A DNA stretch of 64,000 nt from Bacteroidales bacterium. Lineage in GTDB: Bacteria > Bacteroidota > Bacteroidia > Bacteroidales > UBA7960. The DNA lies in the NCBI GenBank assembly GCA_003559735.1, contig PWKN01000117.1, forward strand, positions 20,663 through 84,662. Direction: 5' to 3'. The notes below the pieces were generated by a model, which was not told the origin of the DNA, ran no database searches, and saw only the letters and a program-made list of their open reading frames with translations. The translations under genes were made by a program, and so were the position numbers. Shown piece by piece: positions 24,052 through 33,829 of this stretch; position 1 is the first letter of the stretch, and every line of letters begins with the position of its first letter.

Positions 24052-25467
24052 TCAAACGGTACCGAACCCTTCGGCCATCTGTATGGCTTTTCGCAGTGCG
24101 CTGATCTTCCCGTTCACTTCATTGAGTTCTCCCTGCGGACTGGATTCGATGACGACTCCGGCGCCGGCCTGATAGATCAGTCTGCCTCTCAGGCTAAGGA
24201 ATGACCGGATCATGATGGCATGGTTCAGTGTACCATTGAGTCCGATAAACCCGATTGCTCCCCCGTAAAAACCCCGTGCACGGTCTTCGTATTGATCTAT
24301 AAGCTGTATCGCTTTGTGCTTGGGGGCGCCCGACAATGTTCCGGCGGGGAAAGTATCTGCAAACAAACGGTATTTTTTCGCTTCCTTGTCCAGCCTGCCG
24401 CTAACCGTTGATACCAGGTGTATCACGTGAGAATAGGTTTGCACCTGGCGAAATGTTTCTACTTTTATTTCTGATGCATGTTTGCTCAGATCGTTGCGTG
24501 CCAGGTCGACGAGCATACAATGTTCGGAGTTTTCCTTTTGATTGGCCAGCAACTCCTCTACAAGCGCAGCATCTTTGAGGGGGTCTTCCTGGCGGATCAC
24601 GGTGCCTGCAATGGGATTGATCAGGGCCATGTTTTGGTTCACCTGCAGCTGTGCCTCAGGCGATGAGCCAAACAGCTTATAGGACAAGTAGTCAAAATAG
24701 AACAAATAGGGCGATGGGTTGATTGAGCGCAGCGCCCGGTACACATTGAACTCGTCGCCGGTAAAATCCTGCTCGAAACGCCGCGACAGTACGATCTGGA
24801 ACACATCGCCACGGGCACAGTGTCCGATGCCCTTGTTTACCATTTCCATATAGCTGTCGTCGGTGGTGGGAGATCTTTCTGTTCCTGTTCTGCAAAAAGG
24901 GAAGCAGGTGGCGTTCCGGTTGGCAAGCAATGAACGTATCGCAGGTACGATCGTTTGACGATCTTTGTCCAGCAACTCACAAATGACAAGGGTGTGGTTG
25001 AAATGGTTGAAAGCAATCACCACCTGGTACAGATCATAACGCAACAGGGGTATACGGTCATTGTCGTTATCCGGCCGGCGAATGTTTACGTTATCGAAGT
25101 AATTTACCGCATCATAGGCGGTATAGCCAAAAACACCCGGCATGTGCCGTTCATCAGGAGCGTTTTCAATGGCAAACGAGGCCAGAAAGTCCTCAACAAT
25201 ATCTGTTACCGGCATACTGCCGTCGATGGTACGGGTTTTTTCTTCTGAGTTGTTGTATCTGACTTTCAGATTGTTCCCCTCCATCTCCACCCCAGCCATT
25301 GGTTGCAGGCATATATATGAATACGCGTCCTGCCTGCTGCTGTAGTCGGCGCACTCCAGCAACTGACACTGAGGAAATGCGTCGCGCAACCGCAGATAGA
25401 TGCCTACCGGGGTGAAGGTATCGGCCTGCAGGAGATGAATGTCTGCTTTGAGTTGAATCTTTTGCAT
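24052..25467 (-). CDS. trpE: Anthranilate synthase component I
   Basis: 471 aa chorismate-binding enzyme with C-terminal GFYGGAIGFIG and AGAGVV motifs. Confidence 0.95.
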   Translation of the reverse strand: MQKIQLKADIHLLQADTFTPVGIYLRLRDAFPQCQLLECADYSSRQDAYSYICLQPMAGVEMEGNNLKVRYNNSEEKTRTIDGSMPVTDIVEDFLASFAIENAPDERHMPGVFGYTAYDAVNYFDNVNIRRPDNDNDRIPLLRYDLYQVVIAFNHFNHTLVICELLDKDRQTIVPAIRSLLANRNATCFPFCRTGTERSPTTDDSYMEMVNKGIGHCARGDVFQIVLSRRFEQDFTGDEFNVYRALRSINPSPYLFYFDYLSYKLFGSSPEAQLQVNQNMALINPIAGTVIRQEDPLKDAALVEELLANQKENSEHCMLVDLARNDLSKHASEIKVETFRQVQTYSHVIHLVSTVSGRLDKEAKKYRLFADTFPAGTLSGAPKHKAIQLIDQYEDRARGFYGGAIGFIGLNGTLNHAIMIRSFLSLRGRLIYQAGAGVVIESSPQGELNEVNGKISALRKAIQMAEGFGTV

Positions 25468-25622
25468 CTTTATTCCTGTTTAATATGGATTATATACTGT
25501 TCCGGGTCTTTGAACCCGCCTTTTACAAACTCGCCGAAGACTCCGTTGCCAGACGATCATCATCTGCCGTCGTCACCCTGAAGGGCATTGCCCCGGTTCA
25601 TGTCCTGAGCGATCAGGCACAC

Positions 25623-25651
25623 AAAAAAGCCCGCTTGCGTGTCAAGCGGGC
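25623..25651 (-). terminator. Intrinsic terminator (attenuator) between the trp leader ORF and trpE
   Basis: On the minus-strand RNA: GCCCGCUUG-ACACG-CAAGCGGGC (9-bp stem) followed by UUUUUU. It lies 40 nt after the leader stop and about 155 nt before the trpE ATG. Confidence 0.8.
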
Positions 25652-25691
25652 TTTTTCACAAAATGATGCCTTGAATAATATCTTAACATCC

Positions 25692-25772
25692 CTATGGCCT
25701 ATAGCACCTGACACAGCAACCGAGGCTGTTGTGCCACCACCAAAAGCAAAAGGTATGTTTCGATCTCTTCAT
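25692..25772 (-). CDS. trpL: trp operon leader peptide (26 aa, three consecutive Trp codons)
   Basis: MKRSKHTFCFWWWHNSLGCCVRCYRP*. TGG TGG TGG lies at 25734-25742 on the minus strand. This is the 3' part of track ORF 25692..25946. Confidence 0.75.
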   Translation of the reverse strand: MKRSKHTFCFWWWHNSLGCCVRCYRP

Positions 25773-25792
25773 CTCTGTTCTGATTTCGCCTG

Positions 25793-25800
25793 CAATATTA
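25793..25800 (-). promoter_or_regulatory. Candidate -7 promoter box TAATATTG for the trp leader
   Basis: Minus strand TAATATTGCAG sits 21 nt upstream of the leader ATG. The identical 11-mer occurs upstream of the Phe/Tyr leader at 29283-29293. Confidence 0.35.
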
Positions 25801-25870
25801 AGGATAATTTTTGAATAAACAACCGTATAAAAAAATTTTTTATATTTGCAATTCATAAAAAAATAATTCA

Positions 25871-25878
25871 TACTTTTG
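25871..25878 (+). promoter_or_regulatory. Candidate -7 promoter box TACTTTTG for the asn leader/asnA
   Basis: Exact TAnnTTTG match 34 nt upstream of the leader ATG at 25912. A TTTG lies at 25845-25848. Confidence 0.4.
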
Positions 25879-25911
25879 TCCAGATTATCATTCAAAAAGC
25901 ATACGGAAGAC

Positions 25912-25962
25912 ATGATTGCCTCATACATCATTAATAATAATAACAATAACTGCCCACCTTAG
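25912..25962 (+). CDS. asnA leader peptide (16 aa, six consecutive Asn codons)
   Basis: MIASYIINNNNNNCPP*. AAT AAT AAT AAC AAT AAC lies at 25933-25950. Confidence 0.7.
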   Translation: MIASYIINNNNNNCPP

Positions 25963-26000
25963 TCAAGGCGGTTGCTTTGTTATGCCTGAAAATCATATGA

Positions 26001-26026
26001 GCCCGCCAATTGGCGGGCTTTTTTTA
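26001..26026 (+). terminator. Intrinsic terminator (attenuator) upstream of asnA
   Basis: GCCCGCC-AATT-GGCGGGC followed by TTTTTTT. It lies 38 nt after the leader stop and 42 nt before the asnA ATG. Confidence 0.8.
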
Positions 26027-26055
26027 TTTATTCACTTTTTATTTATTCACTTTTT
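26026..26055 (+). repeat. Perfect 15-bp tandem duplication ATTTATTCACTTTTT x2
   Basis: 26026-26040 equals 26041-26055, read directly. It sits between the attenuator terminator and the asnA ATG. Confidence 0.9.
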
Positions 26056-26067
26056 AAATTAATTATC

Positions 26068-27078
26068 ATGTCAGCAACAACAGAGATCCTGAAAACCGAG
26101 CGAGCCATTGCTTTTGTCAAAGACCATTTTGAAAAGGCCTTGTCGAATCGTTTGAACCTGATCAAAGTGTCATCCCCCATAGCGGTAATGGAAAATACCG
26201 GGTTGAATGATGAGCTTAACGGGGTGGAGCGTCCGGTCAATTTCATGGTGAAGTCCGCCAACGGCAGTCCTGCCGTTATTGTCCATTCGCTGGCCAAATG
26301 GAAGCGCTTACGGTTGAAACAGCTTGATATAGCGCCGGGCATGGGTGTTCTGACAGATATGAGGGCACTCAGGCCAGAAGAAGACTATACCCCGCTGCAT
26401 TCAATATATGTAGACCAGTGGGACTGGGAGCAAAGCATGCTGCCTGAGGAACGCACACTTTCTTTCCTGAAAGCCACTGTTAAAAGAATCTATGAGGCCC
26501 TGAAAGAGACCGAGAAGCTGTTTTGCGAAGCCTTTACAGCATTTTCTCCAACCCTTGCCGACCAGATCACCTTCTTCCATGCCGAAGAACTGGCACAGCG
26601 CTATCCTGATCTTACTCCAAAACAAAGGGAAACTGAAATTACCAGGGAGTATGGTTCTGTTTTCATTATCGGTATTGGGGCCGAACTGTCCGACGGACTG
26701 GCGCATGATGGCCGTGCACCCGATTACGACGACTGGTCGTCAGAGAATGAAGAGGGGAGCATCGGACTCAATGGCGACATCATTGTGTGGAACCATGTAC
26801 TGGAGGATGCCTTTGAAATATCTTCAATGGGGATCCGTGTTGATCCCGAGGCCCTTCAGCGTCAGCTGGTGTTGCGTCGCTGCCCGGAAAAAGCAAGTTA
26901 TCCTTTTCATCAGATGCTGCTCAGGGGAGAGCTGCCACAGAGTATCGGGGGCGGTATCGGACAATCGAGGGTATGCATGTTCATGCTCAGAAAGTCGCAT
27001 ATAGGCGAAGTGCAGGTTGGCATTTGGCCGGAAGGAGAAAAAGAGCGCCTGGAAGCAGAGGGCATCCGGTTGCTATAG
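26068..27078 (+). CDS. asnA: Aspartate--ammonia ligase (asparagine synthetase A)
   Basis: 336 aa. VHSLAKWKR, YVDQWDWE, LNGDIIVWNHVLEDAFEISSMGIRVD and GGGIGQSR closely match E. coli AsnA as I recall it. Confidence 0.95.
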   Translation: MSATTEILKTERAIAFVKDHFEKALSNRLNLIKVSSPIAVMENTGLNDELNGVERPVNFMVKSANGSPAVIVHSLAKWKRLRLKQLDIAPGMGVLTDMRALRPEEDYTPLHSIYVDQWDWEQSMLPEERTLSFLKATVKRIYEALKETEKLFCEAFTAFSPTLADQITFFHAEELAQRYPDLTPKQRETEITREYGSVFIIGIGAELSDGLAHDGRAPDYDDWSSENEEGSIGLNGDIIVWNHVLEDAFEISSMGIRVDPEALQRQLVLRRCPEKASYPFHQMLLRGELPQSIGGGIGQSRVCMFMLRKSHIGEVQVGIWPEGEKERLEAEGIRLL

Positions 27079-27081
27079 CCA

Positions 27082-28851
27082 TCACAGGGGCCACACCATC
27101 ATGATCAACGGCACCCCGATCAGCACGATGATCACCTCAAGGGGTAGTCCCATTCTCCAATAGTCGGTAAACCTGTATCCTCCCGGACCCATCACCAGGG
27201 TATTCGACTGGTGTCCGACAGGTGTAAGGAAGGCACAGGAGCCTCCGACGGCGACAGCCATCAGAAAGGGGTCGGCAGACAATCCGAGACCGTTTGCCAC
27301 GCTGATGGCAATGGGTGCCATCAGCACCACCGTGGCGGCATTGTTTATAATGTCTGACAAGAACATGGTTACCACCAGAATCAGGGTAAGAATTGCCCAT
27401 GGAGGGAATATTTCTCCTGTAAGCAGTATCCGGGAGGCGATCCACGAGGCACCGCCGCTGGTTTCCAGTGCCGTTCCAACAGGGATCATTGCGGCAAGCA
27501 ATACGATCACAGGCCAGTCAATATTATGGTATACGTTTTTAAGCGGAAGGACCCCCGAGAGGACCATACCAAGGGCAGCCATGGAGAACGCCACCTGCAC
27601 GGGCAACAAGCCGGCCACCACAAGAATGATGGCACCCACAAAAACACCCAGTGCCAGCGGGATCTTTTGCTTGTAGCCAATCCGCAAACCGCGTTGCGCC
27701 AGGGGGAGACATCCGATGGTGGTAATGGCATCATCGAGTACATGCTCCCTGCCCTGCAAAAGCAATACATCGCCGGTACGAAAAACCACGTGGTCGAGCC
27801 GGCGGCGGATCCGCTGCTCCTTGCGTGCAACGGCCAGCAAGTTAATGCCAAAACGGCTGCGCATCCGCAAACCGGCCGCCGACTGTCCAACGACCGGAGA
27901 ATCAGGCATCACGATGGCCTCTGTAATACGGATGTTTTTCGAACCCTCCGCATCCTTCCTGAATTTCTTATCGCCTACAAGCTGCACCCCGGTATCATCA
28001 ATGAACGTTTTCAGCTCTTCTGTGTCTGTTTCGATGATGATGATATCGTTGTTTGCAAATGTTTCCTCCGGATTGGGAGCATGGATGCGTTTGCCGGCGC
28101 GGACAAAACCCAGGACCTGTACCCCGGCACCGGTTACTGTGTCGAGTGTGCCCACGGTAAGTCCCTTAATTTTGGATCTGGACGTTACTTTTACCTCCGT
28201 AATGTATTCATCAATACCAAACAGGTCTGTCTCCGATTTGGCACTGATCCGTTTTGGCAACAACCGCCATCCCAGCAGTGCAATAAAGAGAATTCCCGCT
28301 ATGGCCAGACTGATCCCCACAGGAGAAAAGTCAAACATTCCAAACGCCTGTCCGGCATAGTCTTTCCGAAAAGTGGCTATGATTATGTTTGGCGGAGTGC
28401 CTATCAGCGTTGTCATCCCTCCCAATAGCGAAGCAAAGGCAATAGGCATGAGGATATAGGAAGGCGGGTGTCCACTCTTTCTCGCCATGGCAATTGCCAC
28501 CGGCATCATTATGGCCAGGGCCCCTACGTTGTTCATAAAGGCTGATGCAACAGCAACGATCACAGACAAGGTTGTGATCTGCAGCAATAAGCCCTTCCCT
28601 GCCTTCATCACCCACTTCCCCAAAACATCAATCAGGCCCGAGTGTTCCAGTCCTTTCCCAATCACAAGTACCGCCGCAACAGTGATCACCGCCGGGTGTC
28701 CAAAGCCTTCAAAGGCTTCCTGGGGAGAAACAACACCGGCAACAACCATTATGAACAATGCGATCAGCGCCACCGCATCATGCCTGAACCATCCCCATGC
28801 AAACAAAATCAACACAAGCACCAACGTGCCAAAAACAATACCTTGTTCCAT
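27082..28851 (-). CDS. SLC13/DASS-type anion permease with central TrkA-C domains
   Basis: 589 aa. Two polytopic halves flank a soluble region of about 170 aa with a TrkA-C-like duplicated fold. Confidence 0.75.
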   Translation of the reverse strand: MEQGIVFGTLVLVLILFAWGWFRHDAVALIALFIMVVAGVVSPQEAFEGFGHPAVITVAAVLVIGKGLEHSGLIDVLGKWVMKAGKGLLLQITTLSVIVAVASAFMNNVGALAIMMPVAIAMARKSGHPPSYILMPIAFASLLGGMTTLIGTPPNIIIATFRKDYAGQAFGMFDFSPVGISLAIAGILFIALLGWRLLPKRISAKSETDLFGIDEYITEVKVTSRSKIKGLTVGTLDTVTGAGVQVLGFVRAGKRIHAPNPEETFANNDIIIIETDTEELKTFIDDTGVQLVGDKKFRKDAEGSKNIRITEAIVMPDSPVVGQSAAGLRMRSRFGINLLAVARKEQRIRRRLDHVVFRTGDVLLLQGREHVLDDAITTIGCLPLAQRGLRIGYKQKIPLALGVFVGAIILVVAGLLPVQVAFSMAALGMVLSGVLPLKNVYHNIDWPVIVLLAAMIPVGTALETSGGASWIASRILLTGEIFPPWAILTLILVVTMFLSDIINNAATVVLMAPIAISVANGLGLSADPFLMAVAVGGSCAFLTPVGHQSNTLVMGPGGYRFTDYWRMGLPLEVIIVLIGVPLIMMVWPL

Positions 28852-29316: not shown

Positions 29317-29385
29317 ATGAACAGCACATTTGTCACCTATTTTTATTTTTACTTTTACTTCTTTAGCGATAAAGGGGTCTGGTGA
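29317..29385 (+). CDS. Phe/Tyr-rich leader peptide 1 (22 aa)
   Basis: MNSTFVTYFYFYFYFFSDKGVW*. Codons 8-16 comprise 5 Phe and 4 Tyr. Confidence 0.75.
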   Translation: MNSTFVTYFYFYFYFFSDKGVW

Positions 29386-29420
29386 TATTGTGTGCAGAAA
29401 ACCGAATAATTAAGTATCCA

Positions 29421-29447
29421 GACCCCGCAAAAGCGGGGTTTTTTTTT
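29421..29447 (+). terminator. Attenuator terminator 1
   Basis: ACCCCGC-AAAA-GCGGGGT followed by a 9-T run. CCAGACCCC (29418-29426) overlaps its 5' arm and is perfectly complementary to GGGGTCTGG (29374-29382) at the end of leader 1. Confidence 0.85.
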
Positions 29448-29464
29448 GTTACGAACTTAACGAT

Positions 29465-29628: not shown

Positions 29629-30591
29629 ATGAGTTACAACAGCAACATCCATTCAATAGCAATACAAGGAATAAACGGATCTTTTCACCACGAAGCGGCC
29701 ACGTTGTTTTTCCACGACAAACTGAACCTGATTGAGTGCATGACTTTCAGGGAGCTGGTAGGAAAGGTCACCTCCGGGAAGGCCGCCCACGGCATCATGG
29801 CTGTTGAGAATTCGCTTGCAGGAGGCATGCTCCCCAACCTGTCGCTGATCAGGGAGTCGGATCTTTTTGTGAGTGGTGAGCTGTATATGCGCATCAGCCA
29901 GAACCTGATGGCATTGCCTGGTCAGGATATATACAGCCTTACAGAGGTTCATTCACACCCGCTTGCCATCATGCAGTCGGAAGCCTTCTTTAGCTGCTTT
30001 CCGCACATCCGTCTGATAGAGTCGGCCGACACGGCGCTGAGTGCAAAAGACATTGCCGACAATCAGCGCTGGGGGGTGGGTGCCATTGGCAGTGATGTTG
30101 CGGCGAGGCTCTACGGCCTGGATATTCTGGCACCATCTATTGAGACAAACAAGGAAAACTATACCCGGTTCCTGGTTATTGGAAAACAGCCTTCTGTGGT
30201 GAGAGTCGAAGAGAAGGTCAAAGCCAGTGTGGCCTTTGTCATTCCGCACACTCCCGGAAGTCTGTATGAAGCGATGAAACCGCTTGCAGAAGCTGGCGTA
30301 AACCTGACCATGTTGCAGTCGTTGCCCCTGGTTGGTCAAAAATGGCAATATATTTTTCATGCCGACATGATCTTTCAGAATATGGCAGCGGCTACCTCAG
30401 TTATTGAAGCGTTCCGGACCGTTTTAAAACAATTATGGGTGATGGGCATCTATCCCTTGCAGAACCGCAGTGGCAGCAGTACTGCTCCGCGGCAGACAAG
30501 CTATGAGAAGATCCACGGAACCCGGCCGGCCGTTGCCGTCCACAATATACCGGAAACACAAAGCGTCAAAGAAGACAATACCAACAGGTAA
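29629..30591 (+). CDS. pheA: Prephenate dehydratase (PDT + ACT domains)
   Basis: 320 aa with the TRFLVIG motif and a C-terminal ACT-like region. There is no N-terminal chorismate mutase domain. Confidence 0.9.
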   Translation: MSYNSNIHSIAIQGINGSFHHEAATLFFHDKLNLIECMTFRELVGKVTSGKAAHGIMAVENSLAGGMLPNLSLIRESDLFVSGELYMRISQNLMALPGQDIYSLTEVHSHPLAIMQSEAFFSCFPHIRLIESADTALSAKDIADNQRWGVGAIGSDVAARLYGLDILAPSIETNKENYTRFLVIGKQPSVVRVEEKVKASVAFVIPHTPGSLYEAMKPLAEAGVNLTMLQSLPLVGQKWQYIFHADMIFQNMAAATSVIEAFRTVLKQLWVMGIYPLQNRSGSSTAPRQTSYEKIHGTRPAVAVHNIPETQSVKEDNTNR

Positions 30592-30603
30592 AGGATAACT
30601 GAT

Positions 30604-31461
30604 ATGAATATCTGTATCGCAGGATTAGGACTCATAGGCGGCTCTATGGCAACGGATCTGAAAAAGCGGGGTTTTGCCCGGCATATCACAGGTGTTGACA
30701 GCAATGAAAAACACTGTGATATAGCATTGAAAAAAGGATTTGTGGATGAGGTCGCTGGCTTGCGTCAAGGTGTGACAAAAGCAGACCTGGTCATTCTGGC
30801 CACACCAATTGATGTGATCCAGGACCTGTTGCCCGAAGTGCTCGACCTGGCCGGCAACACCCAAAAAGTCGTGACCGACACCGGTTCAACCAAAAAAGGG
30901 CTGACTGCAATCGCAGAAGGGCATCCCAATGGCAGGCATTACGTAGCCGGACACCCAATGGCAGGAACGGAATATTCCGGTCCATTGGCTGCCATCAGCG
31001 GTCTGTTTGACAAAAAGTGCGTGATCATATGCAACCGTCAGCAAAGCGACATTAACGCGCTCAGCCTGGTTGAAAAAATGTATGATGCATTGAACATGCA
31101 GATCATCCACATGCAGTCGGACGTACATGATGTCAGCGCCGCCTATGTTTCCCATATTTCGCACATCGTATCCTTTGCCTTGTCAAACTGCGTGCAGGAA
31201 AAGGAGCGCAACGAAAAACGCATCTTCAGCCTTGCAGGTGGGGGTTTCACATCCACAGTAAGACTTGCCGCCAGTGCCGCGAGTATGTGGACCCCCATTC
31301 TTCTGGAGAATGCAACGCCCGTACTGGAAGCCCTCGACGCATATATCGCCGGATTGTCAGATTTTCGCAAACACATCGCCAACCACGACAGCGACCGGCT
31401 CAATGAAATGATCACAGAGGCAAACAAGATTCAGCAAATTATCAACCTACCAATAAATTAA
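30604..31461 (+). CDS. tyrA: Prephenate dehydrogenase
   Basis: 285 aa with the Rossmann motif IAGLGLIGGSMA and HPMAGTE. Confidence 0.9.
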   Translation: MNICIAGLGLIGGSMATDLKKRGFARHITGVDSNEKHCDIALKKGFVDEVAGLRQGVTKADLVILATPIDVIQDLLPEVLDLAGNTQKVVTDTGSTKKGLTAIAEGHPNGRHYVAGHPMAGTEYSGPLAAISGLFDKKCVIICNRQQSDINALSLVEKMYDALNMQIIHMQSDVHDVSAAYVSHISHIVSFALSNCVQEKERNEKRIFSLAGGGFTSTVRLAASAASMWTPILLENATPVLEALDAYIAGLSDFRKHIANHDSDRLNEMITEANKIQQIINLPIN

Positions 31462-31468
31462 GTTTGTT

Positions 31469-32587
31469 ATGAAAACAACCCAGGCACGACAACAAAGCGC
31501 ACAAAAAAACGGGCATTCCCGTCCGGTATTGATCGCGGGTCCATGCAGTGCAGAATCGCCCCGGCAACTGATGGAAACGGCCAAAGCACTGGCCCTGACC
31601 AATCGTGTAGACTATTTCCGGGCCGGTGTGTGGAAGCCAAGAACGTCACCTGGTTCTTTTGAGGGAGTGGGAACCGAAGCGCTGAAGTGGCTCCAGGATG
31701 TGAAGGAAGCAACCGGACTGAAGGTTGCTACCGAAGCAGGTAATGTGCAGCATGCCCGTGAAGCCCTCAGGCACAATATCGACATGTTGTGGATCGGTGC
31801 ACGTACCGTAAGCAACCCTTTTGTTGTACAGGAAATTGCCGACACGCTGAAAGGGAGCGATGTCGTGGTAATGGTAAAAAATCCGATGGCTCCTGACGTA
31901 GATCTGTGGGCCGGCAGCATAAAACGTTTCCAAAAGGCAGGGATAAAAAATGTGTGTGCCATACACCGGGGTTTTTCCTATTGGACCCGTTCTGTGTTTC
32001 GCAACCATCCGTGGTGGCATCTTCCCATGGAACTCAAAAAACGTCTGCCCGACGTTCCGGTGATCTGTGATCCAAGTCATATCGCCGGCGACCGGAAACT
32101 GGTGCCAATGCTCTCACAAAGGGCAATGGAGATGGGGTTTAACGGACTCATGATAGAGGTGCATCCCAAACCTGAAAATGCACTCAGCGACGCCAACCAG
32201 CAGCTTACCCCTGCCAGCTTCCTGAAGCTGACCGAACAGCTTTTCGGGAACATACGCGACATAGATGGTCAGTACAATATGCTTGACGAACTCCGTGCAG
32301 AAGTGGATGTGATCGACCAGGTGCTGATCTGGGCACTCACCAACCGCATGAAGCTGGCTGGCGAAATTGCCGGGATAAAGAACAAGAACAACATGGAAAC
32401 GCTCCAGCCCCAACGTTGGAAGCAAGTCATTACAACAGCCGTTTCCCGCGCCAGGGAAAGCGGCCTCAGACCTGGCTTCATAGAAAAGCTTTTTGACGAC
32501 ATCCACCACGAATCATTATCGGTACAACGAAACGACGGAGCTGAAACCAAACAAATATCAGGAATTCGTCCTACCTTTGCAATTTGA
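31469..32587 (+). CDS. Bifunctional DAHP synthase (type I-beta) / chorismate mutase (C-terminal AroQ domain)
   Basis: 372 aa. KPRTSPGSFEGVG and CDPSHIAG motifs, plus a C-terminal helical CM domain of about 90 aa (LRAEVDVIDQVLIWALTNRMKLAGEIAGIK). Confidence 0.9.
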   Translation: MKTTQARQQSAQKNGHSRPVLIAGPCSAESPRQLMETAKALALTNRVDYFRAGVWKPRTSPGSFEGVGTEALKWLQDVKEATGLKVATEAGNVQHAREALRHNIDMLWIGARTVSNPFVVQEIADTLKGSDVVVMVKNPMAPDVDLWAGSIKRFQKAGIKNVCAIHRGFSYWTRSVFRNHPWWHLPMELKKRLPDVPVICDPSHIAGDRKLVPMLSQRAMEMGFNGLMIEVHPKPENALSDANQQLTPASFLKLTEQLFGNIRDIDGQYNMLDELRAEVDVIDQVLIWALTNRMKLAGEIAGIKNKNNMETLQPQRWKQVITTAVSRARESGLRPGFIEKLFDDIHHESLSVQRNDGAETKQISGIRPTFAI

Positions 32588-32803
32588 TACGCACCGGAAC
32601 CTGACCATTTACCGGCATAGTGGTGAATGATCATCGCGTACCCTGGTTGCCTCCGGCCTGCCTGCAAAAGTCTGCTTCAGCAGACCGGTATGTGGATGAT
32701 CCGGCATGAACCGGGCCATGCCAATATCCTGGCATACAATGGAATGATTATGACATGGCGGGTTCCATCTGCCGAAACATAAAAAACACAAACAGATGCT
32801 ACA

Positions 32804-33829
32804 ATGGATACGATCTTTGTAAAGGGGAGTTCGCGCAACAGCCGCATCCTTGTTGGCGAAACGATGGACAAACTGCCGGAATACATGCCCGGAAACCACG
32901 TGTTTATCATTACCGATAAGAACGTATATGACATATATGAAACATCATTCCCCCGCTTTCCCGTCTATACGCTGAAACCCGGAGAAGCGACAAAAACCCC
33001 CGATTCAGCGATCGACATTTGCCGCTGGCTAATGGATAATGGCGGCGGACGAGATGCTTTCATCCTGGGTATCGGCGGCGGCATGGTGTGTGATATGGCC
33101 GGCTTTGTCGCCTCAGTGTTTATGCGCGGAGTGGCATTCGGATTCGTTGCCACCTCACTCCTCGCCCAGGTGGATGCCAGTCTGGGGGGTAAAAACGGGG
33201 TAAACCTCGATGGATACAAAAACATCATTGGCACCTTCAACCAGCCACAATTTGTCCTGTGCGACACAACCATGCTGCACAGTCTGCCGGCTGATGAACT
33301 GAAAAACGGACTGGCAGAAGCAGTTAAGCACACGCTCATTGCCGATAAGCAGATGTTTCAACACATACTGAACCATGCAGGAGAGATCCTGGCCCTGGAT
33401 GAAGCACTGATAAACAAACTGGTGAGACATTCCATAGAGGTCAAATCGGCCATTGTTGGCAGAGATGAAACAGAAGCGGGTGAACGGCGCAAACTGAACC
33501 TCGGACATACCTGGGGACATGCAGTGGAAAAAACCGATGGCATTGCTCACGGACAGGCGGTAAGTATCGGACTCTCCTTTGCAGCAAAGCTTTCAGAAAA
33601 AAAACAAATGCTGAGTGCCGGCGACCGCATCACTATAAACGAACTGCTTCATTCACTCAACCTCCCGACAGAAACGGATACGGACCCAAGACAGATCTTC
33701 CGTGCCCTGGTCAGGGACAAAAAGAAGGAAGGCGATCACATCCATTTTGTGCTGATGAATGGCATTGGCCAGGTAACGGTTGAACCACTGTCCCTGTCCG
33801 AACTGGATGATTTTATTCAGACAATATAA
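32804..33829 (+). CDS. aroB: 3-dehydroquinate synthase
   Basis: 341 aa with GGGMVCDMAGFVA and LNLGHTWGHA. Confidence 0.95.
   Translation: MDTIFVKGSSRNSRILVGETMDKLPEYMPGNHVFIITDKNVYDIYETSFPRFPVYTLKPGEATKTPDSAIDICRWLMDNGGGRDAFILGIGGGMVCDMAGFVASVFMRGVAFGFVATSLLAQVDASLGGKNGVNLDGYKNIIGTFNQPQFVLCDTTMLHSLPADELKNGLAEAVKHTLIADKQMFQHILNHAGEILALDEALINKLVRHSIEVKSAIVGRDETEAGERRKLNLGHTWGHAVEKTDGIAHGQAVSIGLSFAAKLSEKKQMLSAGDRITINELLHSLNLPTETDTDPRQIFRALVRDKKKEGDHIHFVLMNGIGQVTVEPLSLSELDDFIQTI

Follow-up and report, generated by a model that had tools for sequence, protein, structure and literature searches.

Introduction

Leader-peptide attenuation is textbook knowledge for Trp, His, Phe, Leu, Thr and Ile/Val. 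The gene asnA has been described under two other paradigms, the protein AsnC in Proteobacteria and the T-box in Firmicutes, where in Asn-specific leaders of asnS and asnA the charging of tRNA-Asn sets the choice between terminator and antiterminator. Here, we analyse a stretch of 64,000 nucleotides (nt) from a Bacteroidales bacterium (assembly GCA_003559735.1, contig PWKN01000117.1, positions 20,663 to 84,662; the window), in which a leader of about 115 nt, counted from its ATG at 25912 to the end of its U-tract at 26025, precedes asnA. An earlier note on this DNA had read the leader as a candidate Asn-sensing attenuator. Our analysis indicates that the element is very probably a ribosome-mediated (leader-peptide) transcription attenuator that couples transcription of asnA to the supply of charged tRNA-Asn.

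Leader open reading frames (ORFs) specific to particular lineages are also known, among them the poly-Cys leaders of mycobacteria. An attenuator survey by Lopatovskaya et al. (2010, Mol Biol) is said to include Bacteroidetes. Comparative work has further described an upstream-ORF (uORF) attenuator of Corynebacterium ilvB (Narunsky et al., cited in PMC11109978), His leaders of Bacillus hisS/hisZ (Naville & Gautheret 2010, PMC2965389) and, in Bacteroidota, the Bacteroid-trp motif (RF01692), a leader element of amino-acid biosynthesis genes (Weinberg et al. 2010, PMC2864571).

Results

A short Asn-rich ORF and a terminator precede asnA

The order described in the earlier note, an ORF with six Asn codons followed by a terminator and asnA, can be read directly from the forward strand of the locus. 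The ORF, for which we propose the name asnL, extends over 16 codons from the ATG at 25912 to the TAG at 25960-25962 (ATG ATT GCC TCA TAC ATC ATT AAT AAT AAT AAC AAT AAC TGC CCA CCT TAG) and encodes the peptide MIASYIINNNNNNCPP. Its six consecutive Asn codons (AAT AAT AAT AAC AAT AAC, 25933-25950) are the proposed sensing codons, at which a ribosome would stall. The ORF closes with Pro-Pro-stop (CCA CCT TAG, 25954-25962), the conserved end of the leader peptide, and 7 nt separate the start of this stop codon from the antiterminator strand. Six AAY codons in succession occur only once in the 64 kb when both strands are considered, and in 0 of 100 dinucleotide-preserving shuffles.

The core of the terminator, GCCCGCC-AATT-GGCGGGC (26001-26018), lies where the earlier note had placed it and extends to a 9-base-pair (bp) GC-rich stem (25999-26007 with 26012-26020), in its full form GAGCCCGCC-AAUU-GGCGGGCUU (25999-26020); the following U7 tract ends at 26025, one base before the end previously given as 26026. 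Since this terminator stands between the promoter and asnA, it is not the end of another gene. The presumed regulated gene asnA (aspartate-ammonia ligase, 26068-27078, forward strand; Pfam AsnA PF03590, E=2.9e-96) is monocistronic, because the next gene, a CitMHS transporter identified by Pfam (27082-28851, reverse strand), is convergent. On the other side, the upstream neighbour of the leader is trpE, which is divergent and lies on the minus strand.

Transcription would start from TACTTTTG (25871-25878, forward strand), a candidate -7 promoter box of the Bacteroidota type TAnnTTTG, read from the sequence and recovered in a TAnnTTTG scan. The leader ATG begins 34 nt past the final G of this box, the distance noted earlier, and the transcription start probably falls around 25883-25886. 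An exact TAnnTTTG box is found at most 90 nt 5′ of the first leader ATG at 12 of 23 loci, compared with 1.25 expected from shuffles, and in the close relatives L161, L162 and L164 it stands 32-33 nt ahead of the ATG, as in the window. A sigma-70 promoter scan returned nothing meaningful at the locus, as expected for Bacteroidota. The TAnnTTTG scan also marks an upstream box, TATATTTG (25841-25848, forward strand), which we take to be a promoter element by analogy with Bacteroidota sigma-A promoters, either through a -33 TTTG element (25845-25848) or as a second -7-like box. The two TAnnTTTG boxes, TATATTTG and TACTTTTG, are thus 30 nt apart 5′ of the leader, and the first may be an alternative promoter.

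Predicted alternative helices of the leader RNA

Four segments of the leader RNA are predicted to form three alternative helices. Region 1, the 5′ strand of the anti-antiterminator, comprises Asn codons 3-6 (from the second base of codon 3), UGC and CCACC (25940-25958). Region 2, GGCGGUUGCUUUGUUAU (25967-25983), contains the 5′ strand of the antiterminator (25967-25977) and pairs over its whole length with region 1 in the terminated state. Region 3, GAGCCCGCC (25999-26007), is the terminator 5′ arm and is common to antiterminator and terminator, and region 4 (26012-26025), located by a terminator scan, combines the terminator 3′ arm GGCGGGCUU (26012-26020) with the U7 tract (26019-26025).

Helix 1:2, as predicted by RNAfold, consists of an outer part, AUAACAA (25940-25946) with UUGUUAU (25977-25983), and an inner part, UAACUGCC (25947-25954) with GGCGGUUG (25967-25974), amounting to 15 bp and -13.9 kcal/mol (single-sequence minimum free energy). 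The outer part pairs the Asn codons and is also predicted by RNAalifold on an alignment of the 11 family members (A1). The earlier note had proposed CCACCUU:AAGGCGG for this helix, which contains an A.C mismatch and reaches -5.7 kcal/mol; its CC.CC:GG.GG register is nevertheless the one that RNAalifold picks on the 11 relatives. Helix 2:3 is built from the previously proposed pairing of GGCGG (25967-25971) with CCGCC (26003-26007) and, in addition, from GCUU (25974-25977) with GAGC (25999-26002). The resulting 9 bp with a 2-nt bulge have a predicted energy of -11.5 kcal/mol, or -12.8 kcal/mol with the inner hairpin, so that the former description of this helix as weak and limited to five GC pairs gives way to one of 9 bp and about -12 kcal/mol. 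The terminator helix 3:4 reaches -18.4 kcal/mol. These three energies are close to those of the E. coli trp leader, in which helices 1:2, 2:3 and 3:4 have about -11, -12 and -20.

Pairing is maintained across the 11-member family. In the terminator, 97.0% of the alignment cells are paired, with changes from G-C to G-U and from C-G to U-A; the main antiterminator helix 2:3 (9 bp) is paired in 93.9% and helix 1:2 in 92.7%, the latter compared with 31-54% when the partner strand is slid. Over all three helices, such slid-partner controls give 26-64%. In a second alignment (A2; 13 sequences, aligned with a covariance model), 7 pairs of the 24-pair terminated-state structure show two-sided changes, four of them in helix 1:2, a result obtained in 0 of 500 shuffles. 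These changes include U-A to C-G, where the third position of an Asn codon co-varies with the GUU-rich strand. One member of A2, L124-2, has its antiterminator register shifted by one base.

Conservation among close relatives

Using AsnA as query, we collected 80 loci from GTDB species genomes and 80 from metagenomes, none of which exceeds 65% identity; closer relatives (96-65% identity) were obtained from a protein search, and their contigs were then fetched. The same leader unit stands directly 5′ of asnA in all ten distinct closest AsnA relatives fetched (identities of 96, 89, 76, 75, 71, 69, 68, 65, 65 and 63%), and diverged forms exist in other Bacteroidota orders; the presence of the N-run ORF and terminator in orthologous leaders, on which the earlier note had staked its reading, is therefore borne out. 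The leader peptides are MIALYIINNNNNNCPP (L161), MLKGFFINNNNNNCPP (L162), MKAFFFNNNNNNCPPFKRR (L164), MMAFFFNNNNNNCPP (L166), MNATVYFFSNNNNNNSPP (L167), MAYIFVLNNNNNNFPP (L173), MTMTQFFINNNNNNCPP (L171), MHMKSLFVNNNNCPP (L170), MQFQIINNNKNNNKSPP (L172) and MTQFFDNNNFPP (L081). The gene 5′ of the leader varies among the relatives and may be trpE, an HD-domain gene, an FMN oxidoreductase, a DEAD helicase, hisIE or an outer-membrane protein gene. Because these upstream neighbours differ, the leader is linked to asnA and not to the neighbourhood.

Within A1, the N-terminus of the peptide cannot be aligned. The first and second positions (AA) of the Asn codons are often invariant and their third positions alternate synonymously between T and C; nearly invariant blocks are CCACC-U-stop, GGCGGUUGC-UUUGUUAU and the terminator. 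The Asn run is followed by [C/F/S]PP in 11 of 11 members, and PP-stop is found in ten. In the exception, L164 (L164:2362-2421), PP-stop is lost by a change of TAA/TAG to TTC and the ORF reads on as PPFKRR before it stops, crossing GGCGG and ending at the UAG immediately 3′ of it. A ribosome translating this leader would still occlude the antiterminator strand, which would preserve the logic of the attenuator.

The terminators of L170, L171 and L173 carry GGUGGGC instead of GGCGGGC in the 3′ arm, which creates a G.U pair, and region 2 keeps GGCGG. This arm weakens the terminator relative to the antiterminator and is perfectly complementary to the leader sequence GCCCACC of the Cys-Pro-Pro codons. 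Several of the relatives' contigs apparently derive from soda-lake sediment, judging by names such as SL_3KL_010_SED. At L082 (AsnA 62% identity), a terminator is found ahead of asnA and no Asn-rich ORF; the segment L082:2040-2125 contains a TAnnTTTG box, a GUU-rich stretch GTTATTGTTATT with five Leu codons in one frame, and the terminator, and may represent a decayed or a different leader.

Wider distribution, tandem leaders and specificity for asnA

We scanned the 500 nt upstream of asnA at 155 loci for intrinsic terminators and short ORFs starting with ATG, and applied a strict test that demands at least 4 Asn within 8 residues of the short ORF and a terminator within 120 nt. A terminator lies within the 500 nt at 20 of the 155 loci, and 12 of these pass the strict test; inspection adds L081, L063, L074-2 and L151-2. 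The test is passed by none of the terminator-less loci. The element is carried by species of Hymenobacter, by Mesonia and a further Flavobacteriales genome, and by several metagenome-assembled genomes of environmental Bacteroidales or Bacteroidota, and it is absent from the non-Bacteroidota asnA loci scanned (Treponema, Planctomycetota).

The leaders fall into two types. In the short type, to which the leader in the window belongs, the N-run is followed by one residue, PP and then a stop or a few more codons. The long type comprises 24-29 residues, as in MRHFRNNLQNNNSNNNLIRDWKAIAPLEN and MTFLRNNNNLFNNSNNNHIRTGRLLLLNK, and its ORF runs through the antiterminator strand. Distant leaders intersperse their Asn codons with other codons in one frame (for example NNLQNNNSNNN), and most distant short-type leaders keep PP after the Asn run with varying third codon positions. 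At nine loci (L009, L011, L047, L063, L074, L113, L124, L151 and L172), a long and a short type occur in tandem; both have a terminator and an antiterminator of their own, and the short type is always nearest asnA. This two-type arrangement is not found in the window.

Applied to the 87 kb upstream of asnA, the same pipeline yields 46 units of a short ORF and a terminator, and 27 of these are Asn-rich, compared with 0 of 92 units in the rest of these loci (1.57 Mb), searched on both strands. No other amino acid is comparably enriched in the units upstream of asnA. A covariance model (R1) retrieved L124-2, L172-2 and L011-2 at 50-65 bits and other units more weakly. R1 also matches L147:5238-5327 with 34.9 bits, about 1.7 kb downstream of asnA, where a 92-residue ORF beginning MKKGGLLSFNNNNINLL and containing FNNNNIN is followed by a terminator (L147:5173-5330) and by ORFs without a Pfam match. 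Given the length of this ORF and the unmatched ORFs behind it, we take L147 as unproven as a further Asn leader. Matches of the covariance model on the reverse strand were set aside as merely palindromic terminators.

Antiterminator complementarity and ribosome geometry

For 22 non-redundant units we determined the best duplex between the segment following the Asn codons and the terminator 5′ arm extended by three loop bases, and compared each unit's own arm with the arms of the other units. The own arm gives a mean of -13.7 kcal/mol and permuted arms -9.7 +/- 0.5 kcal/mol, and 0 of 20,000 permutations reach the observed value; in 16 of the 22 units, the own arm ranks first to third of the 22 arms.

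A second, unconstrained search took the whole leader from its ATG and located the best complement to the terminator arm in 31 units. The last Asn codon of the main run and the antiterminator strand are 13-40 nt apart in 31 of 31, measured between their first bases (19 nt in the window). The start of the stop codon precedes the strand by at most 8 nt (by 7 nt in the window), unless the ORF continues through it. A ribosome protects about 12-13 nt 3′ of its A-site codon. With this footprint, GGCGG would stay accessible next to a ribosome stalled on any of the Asn codons and be covered by one at the stop codon.

Known families and literature

Across the whole window, no Rfam 15 family reaches its gathering threshold. 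In a more permissive scan, the best scores of the element are 23.3 bits with Trp_leader (threshold 41), 21.4 with Phe_leader (55), 18.6 with Thr_leader (55) and 18.3 with Leu_leader (50), all below threshold, and we discarded these and similar matches to unrelated leaders and small RNAs as driven by the terminator. Neither the T-box (RF00230) nor Bacteroid-trp (RF01692) reaches its gathering threshold in the window, and neither has a match in 25400-26150 at E<=10. Pfam and NCBIfam, scanned with peptides of at least 20 residues and hence above the 16 residues of the asnL peptide, leave the relatives' long-type Asn leaders, one 20-residue short-type leader (L074) and the Trp and Phe/Tyr leaders of the window unmatched. 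Asparagine or asnA is unmentioned in Naville & Gautheret 2010 (PMC2965389), Weinberg et al. 2010 (PMC2864571), Korolev et al. 2016 and Narunsky et al. 2024, and a full-text literature search returned neither an Asn leader peptide nor an asnA attenuator; subscription literature lies mostly outside such a search, so that an earlier mention is possible. The absence of a described Asn leader, as supposed in the earlier note, agrees with the outcome of all these searches.

Other candidate attenuators in the window

Two further candidate attenuators accompany the Asn leader. In the same 600-nt intergenic region, and divergent from it, a Trp leader (25623-25772, reverse strand) precedes trpE-trpG-trpD with a fold z-score of -5.5; its ORF MKRSKHTFCFWWWHNSLGCCVRCYRP (25772-25692) contains WWW and is followed by a strong terminator (25655-25623). 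Against Rfam it scores 27 bits with Trp_leader (gathering 41), and Bacteroid-trp does not match. Three kb downstream, a Phe/Tyr leader (29317-29450, forward strand) has the ORF MNSTFVTYFYFYFYFFSDKGVW (29317-29385) with FYFYFYFF, a strand GGGGUCUGG that overlaps the stop codon and is complementary to the terminator 5′ arm CCAGACCCC, and a terminator at 29420-29441 followed by U9. It precedes genes for prephenate dehydratase (pheA), prephenate dehydrogenase (tyrA), DAHP synthase/chorismate mutase (aroG) and DHQ synthase (aroB) at 29629-33829, and it has no Rfam match at gathering threshold. As Trp and Phe/Tyr leaders are also present, the organism appears to use classical attenuation repeatedly.

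Discussion

All features of a ribosome-mediated transcription attenuator that can be tested on sequence are found in the element: the parts exist and are conserved, they can pair, and their geometry fits. At this level, the Asn-sensing leader-peptide attenuator proposed in the earlier note holds up in each of its predictions, from Asn enrichment through the pairings to the placement of codons and strands.

In such an attenuator, transcription would begin about 25-30 nt 5′ of the 16-codon ORF, and a ribosome would translate the leader while RNA polymerase proceeds. When Asn is scarce, this ribosome would stall on one of the six Asn codons (25933-25950) and thereby mask region 1, short of GGCGG (25967); region 2 would remain free and pair with the terminator 5′ arm once this is made, and the 2:3 antiterminator would permit read-through into asnA. 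When Asn is plentiful, the ribosome would reach Pro-Pro-UAG, and with the stop codon in its A site it would cover GGCGG, 7 nt downstream. After ribosome release, region 1 (the Asn codons and UGCCCACC) would pair with region 2. Both with the ribosome at the stop codon and after its release, the 3:4 terminator (25999-26020 and U7) would form and transcription would end before asnA.

A number of points weigh against this reading. The inner register of helix 1:2 is ambiguous between the RNAfold minimum and the CC.CC:GG.GG pairing of RNAalifold, both of which sequester GGCGG. Covariation on A1 is not significant in shuffle controls, true covariation being sparse in the close family because the helices are conserved in sequence, and the covariation on A2 leans towards the structure because A2 was fitted to the model. 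Since the terminator is thermodynamically stronger than the antiterminator, antitermination must be kinetic. The own-arm comparison fails clearly for both units of L113 and both of L172, and the own arms of L001 and L011-2 rank fourth. Many Bacteroidota are without the element, which is absent from the asnA loci of Prevotella, Muribaculaceae and Cyclobacterium that were scanned. Finally, we infer leader translation, stalling on the Asn codons and conditional termination from sequence.

The conserved peptide end could point to a leader that acts by nascent-peptide arrest, like TnaC, SpeFL or SecM. The N6-x-PP peptide would then make the ribosome stall at Pro-Pro-stop, and the signal would be a small molecule, be it free Asn or another metabolite, or the status of EF-P or release factors, instead of tRNA-Asn charging read at the Asn codons. 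Pro-Pro and C-terminal Pro are slow contexts for elongation and termination, and Pro-Pro-stop in 10 of the 11 family members as well as PP after the Asn run in most distant short types are in line with such an arrest. We consider it very improbable, however, since a ribosome halted at Pro-Pro-stop would hide GGCGG and thereby favour termination, so that arrest would need relief and not induction to switch asnA on. Long-type leaders of Hymenobacter and others, moreover, have Asn runs and no PP, the N-terminus is not conserved, and pairing with GGCGG at the RNA level offers another explanation for CCACC.

We regard as very improbable a translation-independent RNA switch with an incidental ORF, in which a trans-acting factor, either an RNA-binding protein or uncharged tRNA-Asn bound to AAY in a T-box-like manner, would set the alternatives of (AAY)n, (RUU)n and GGCGG. 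The Asn codons do sit in a conserved helix with the GUU-rich strand, AAY is complementary to the tRNA-Asn anticodon GUU, and Bacteroidota leaders have no Shine-Dalgarno sequence that would prove translation. Yet the in-frame ATG, the Asn run and the stop are kept in every relative, even though the sequence from ATG to run cannot be aligned, and distant leaders scatter their Asn codons in one frame. The position of the stop relative to the antiterminator strand is constrained in all 31 units, which only translation explains, and neither the T-box nor any other Rfam family matches.

Hardly credible is the absence of regulation. On that reading, the divergent trp and asnA promoters would be separated by an insulator or by a partial terminator that works constitutively, with a fortuitous AT-rich ORF, or the terminated leader would be a small RNA or small protein gene in its own right. 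AAT repeats are to be expected in AT-rich intergenic DNA, and terminated attenuator RNAs can act in trans elsewhere, as reported for rnTrpL in Sinorhizobium. Against this, the unit stays with asnA across at least six neighbourhoods, Asn-rich units make up 27 of 46 before asnA against 0 of 92 in the background, antiterminator complementarity is significant, and the mixture of AAC and AAT shows that the run is not a simple repeat. A trans-acting role would add to attenuation and not replace it.

Within the leader-peptide attenuator reading, the short type could form a distinct sub-class, a proposal that we put forward as speculative and rather doubtful. Slow decoding or termination at Pro-Pro-stop would park the ribosome over the antiterminator strand for about 50 nt of transcription, and asnA would integrate tRNA-Asn charging with EF-P or release-factor status. 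Many Bacteroidota would combine this unit serially with another, structurally different Asn leader. If this serial wiring of tandem leaders holds, a steeper response would result. The conserved Pro-Pro-stop could instead reflect the CCACC RNA strand and its pairing with GGCGG.

The element would add a new amino-acid specificity to leader-peptide attenuation, and three such leaders within 4 kb suggest that classical attenuation is extensive in environmental Bacteroidota. The natural variants of this compact leader (the tandem two-type arrangement, the stop loss in L164 and the terminators weakened by G-U pairs) can inform the evolution of attenuators, and in metagenome-assembled genomes the element should help to annotate small ORFs and intergenic regions better.

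Comparison with known systems

The closest likeness is with the trp, his, phe, leu, thr and ilv attenuators of E. coli and other enterobacteria (in Rfam, Trp_leader RF00513, Phe_leader RF01859, Leu_leader RF00512 and Thr_leader RF00506), which share with the asnA leader a short ORF with tandem cognate codons, the 1:2, 2:3 and 3:4 alternatives, an intrinsic terminator before the structural gene and a stop codon at which a terminating ribosome would cover region 2. The asnA leader differs from them in the amino acid predicted to be sensed, in its host phylum Bacteroidota, in its TAnnTTTG promoter, in the lack of a Shine-Dalgarno sequence and in the absence of sequence or covariance-model similarity above threshold; unlike in the enterobacterial attenuators, its regulatory codons pair with a GUU-rich strand and its peptide ends in Pro-Pro-stop. 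The WWW and FYFYFYFF leaders of the window have the same layout of ORF, antiterminator and terminator, with another amino acid and another operon. Bacteroid-trp is likewise a Bacteroidota leader before amino-acid biosynthesis genes and differs in amino acid and operon.

The T-box follows the same physiological logic, but it senses uncharged tRNA by direct binding; its structured leader spans about 200 nt, carries a single specifier codon and is not translated, whereas the Asn element is a leader of about 115 nt with a predicted translated ORF and no T-box match. Control by AsnC in E. coli concerns asnA as well and responds to asparagine, the signal that is predicted here. It relies on a protein transcription factor whose gene is divergent from asnA; the asnA of the window is flanked by trpE and the CitMHS transporter, with no adjacent asnC.

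Corynebacterium ilvB, Bacillus His and mycobacterial Cys leaders share with the asnA leader a lineage-specific ORF rich in cognate codons, a terminator with an antiterminator, and an origin in comparative genomics; none of them senses Asn or precedes asnA. The attenuation mechanism proposed for asnA is of a known kind, and its specificity for Asn and the Bacteroidota family that carries it appear to be new.

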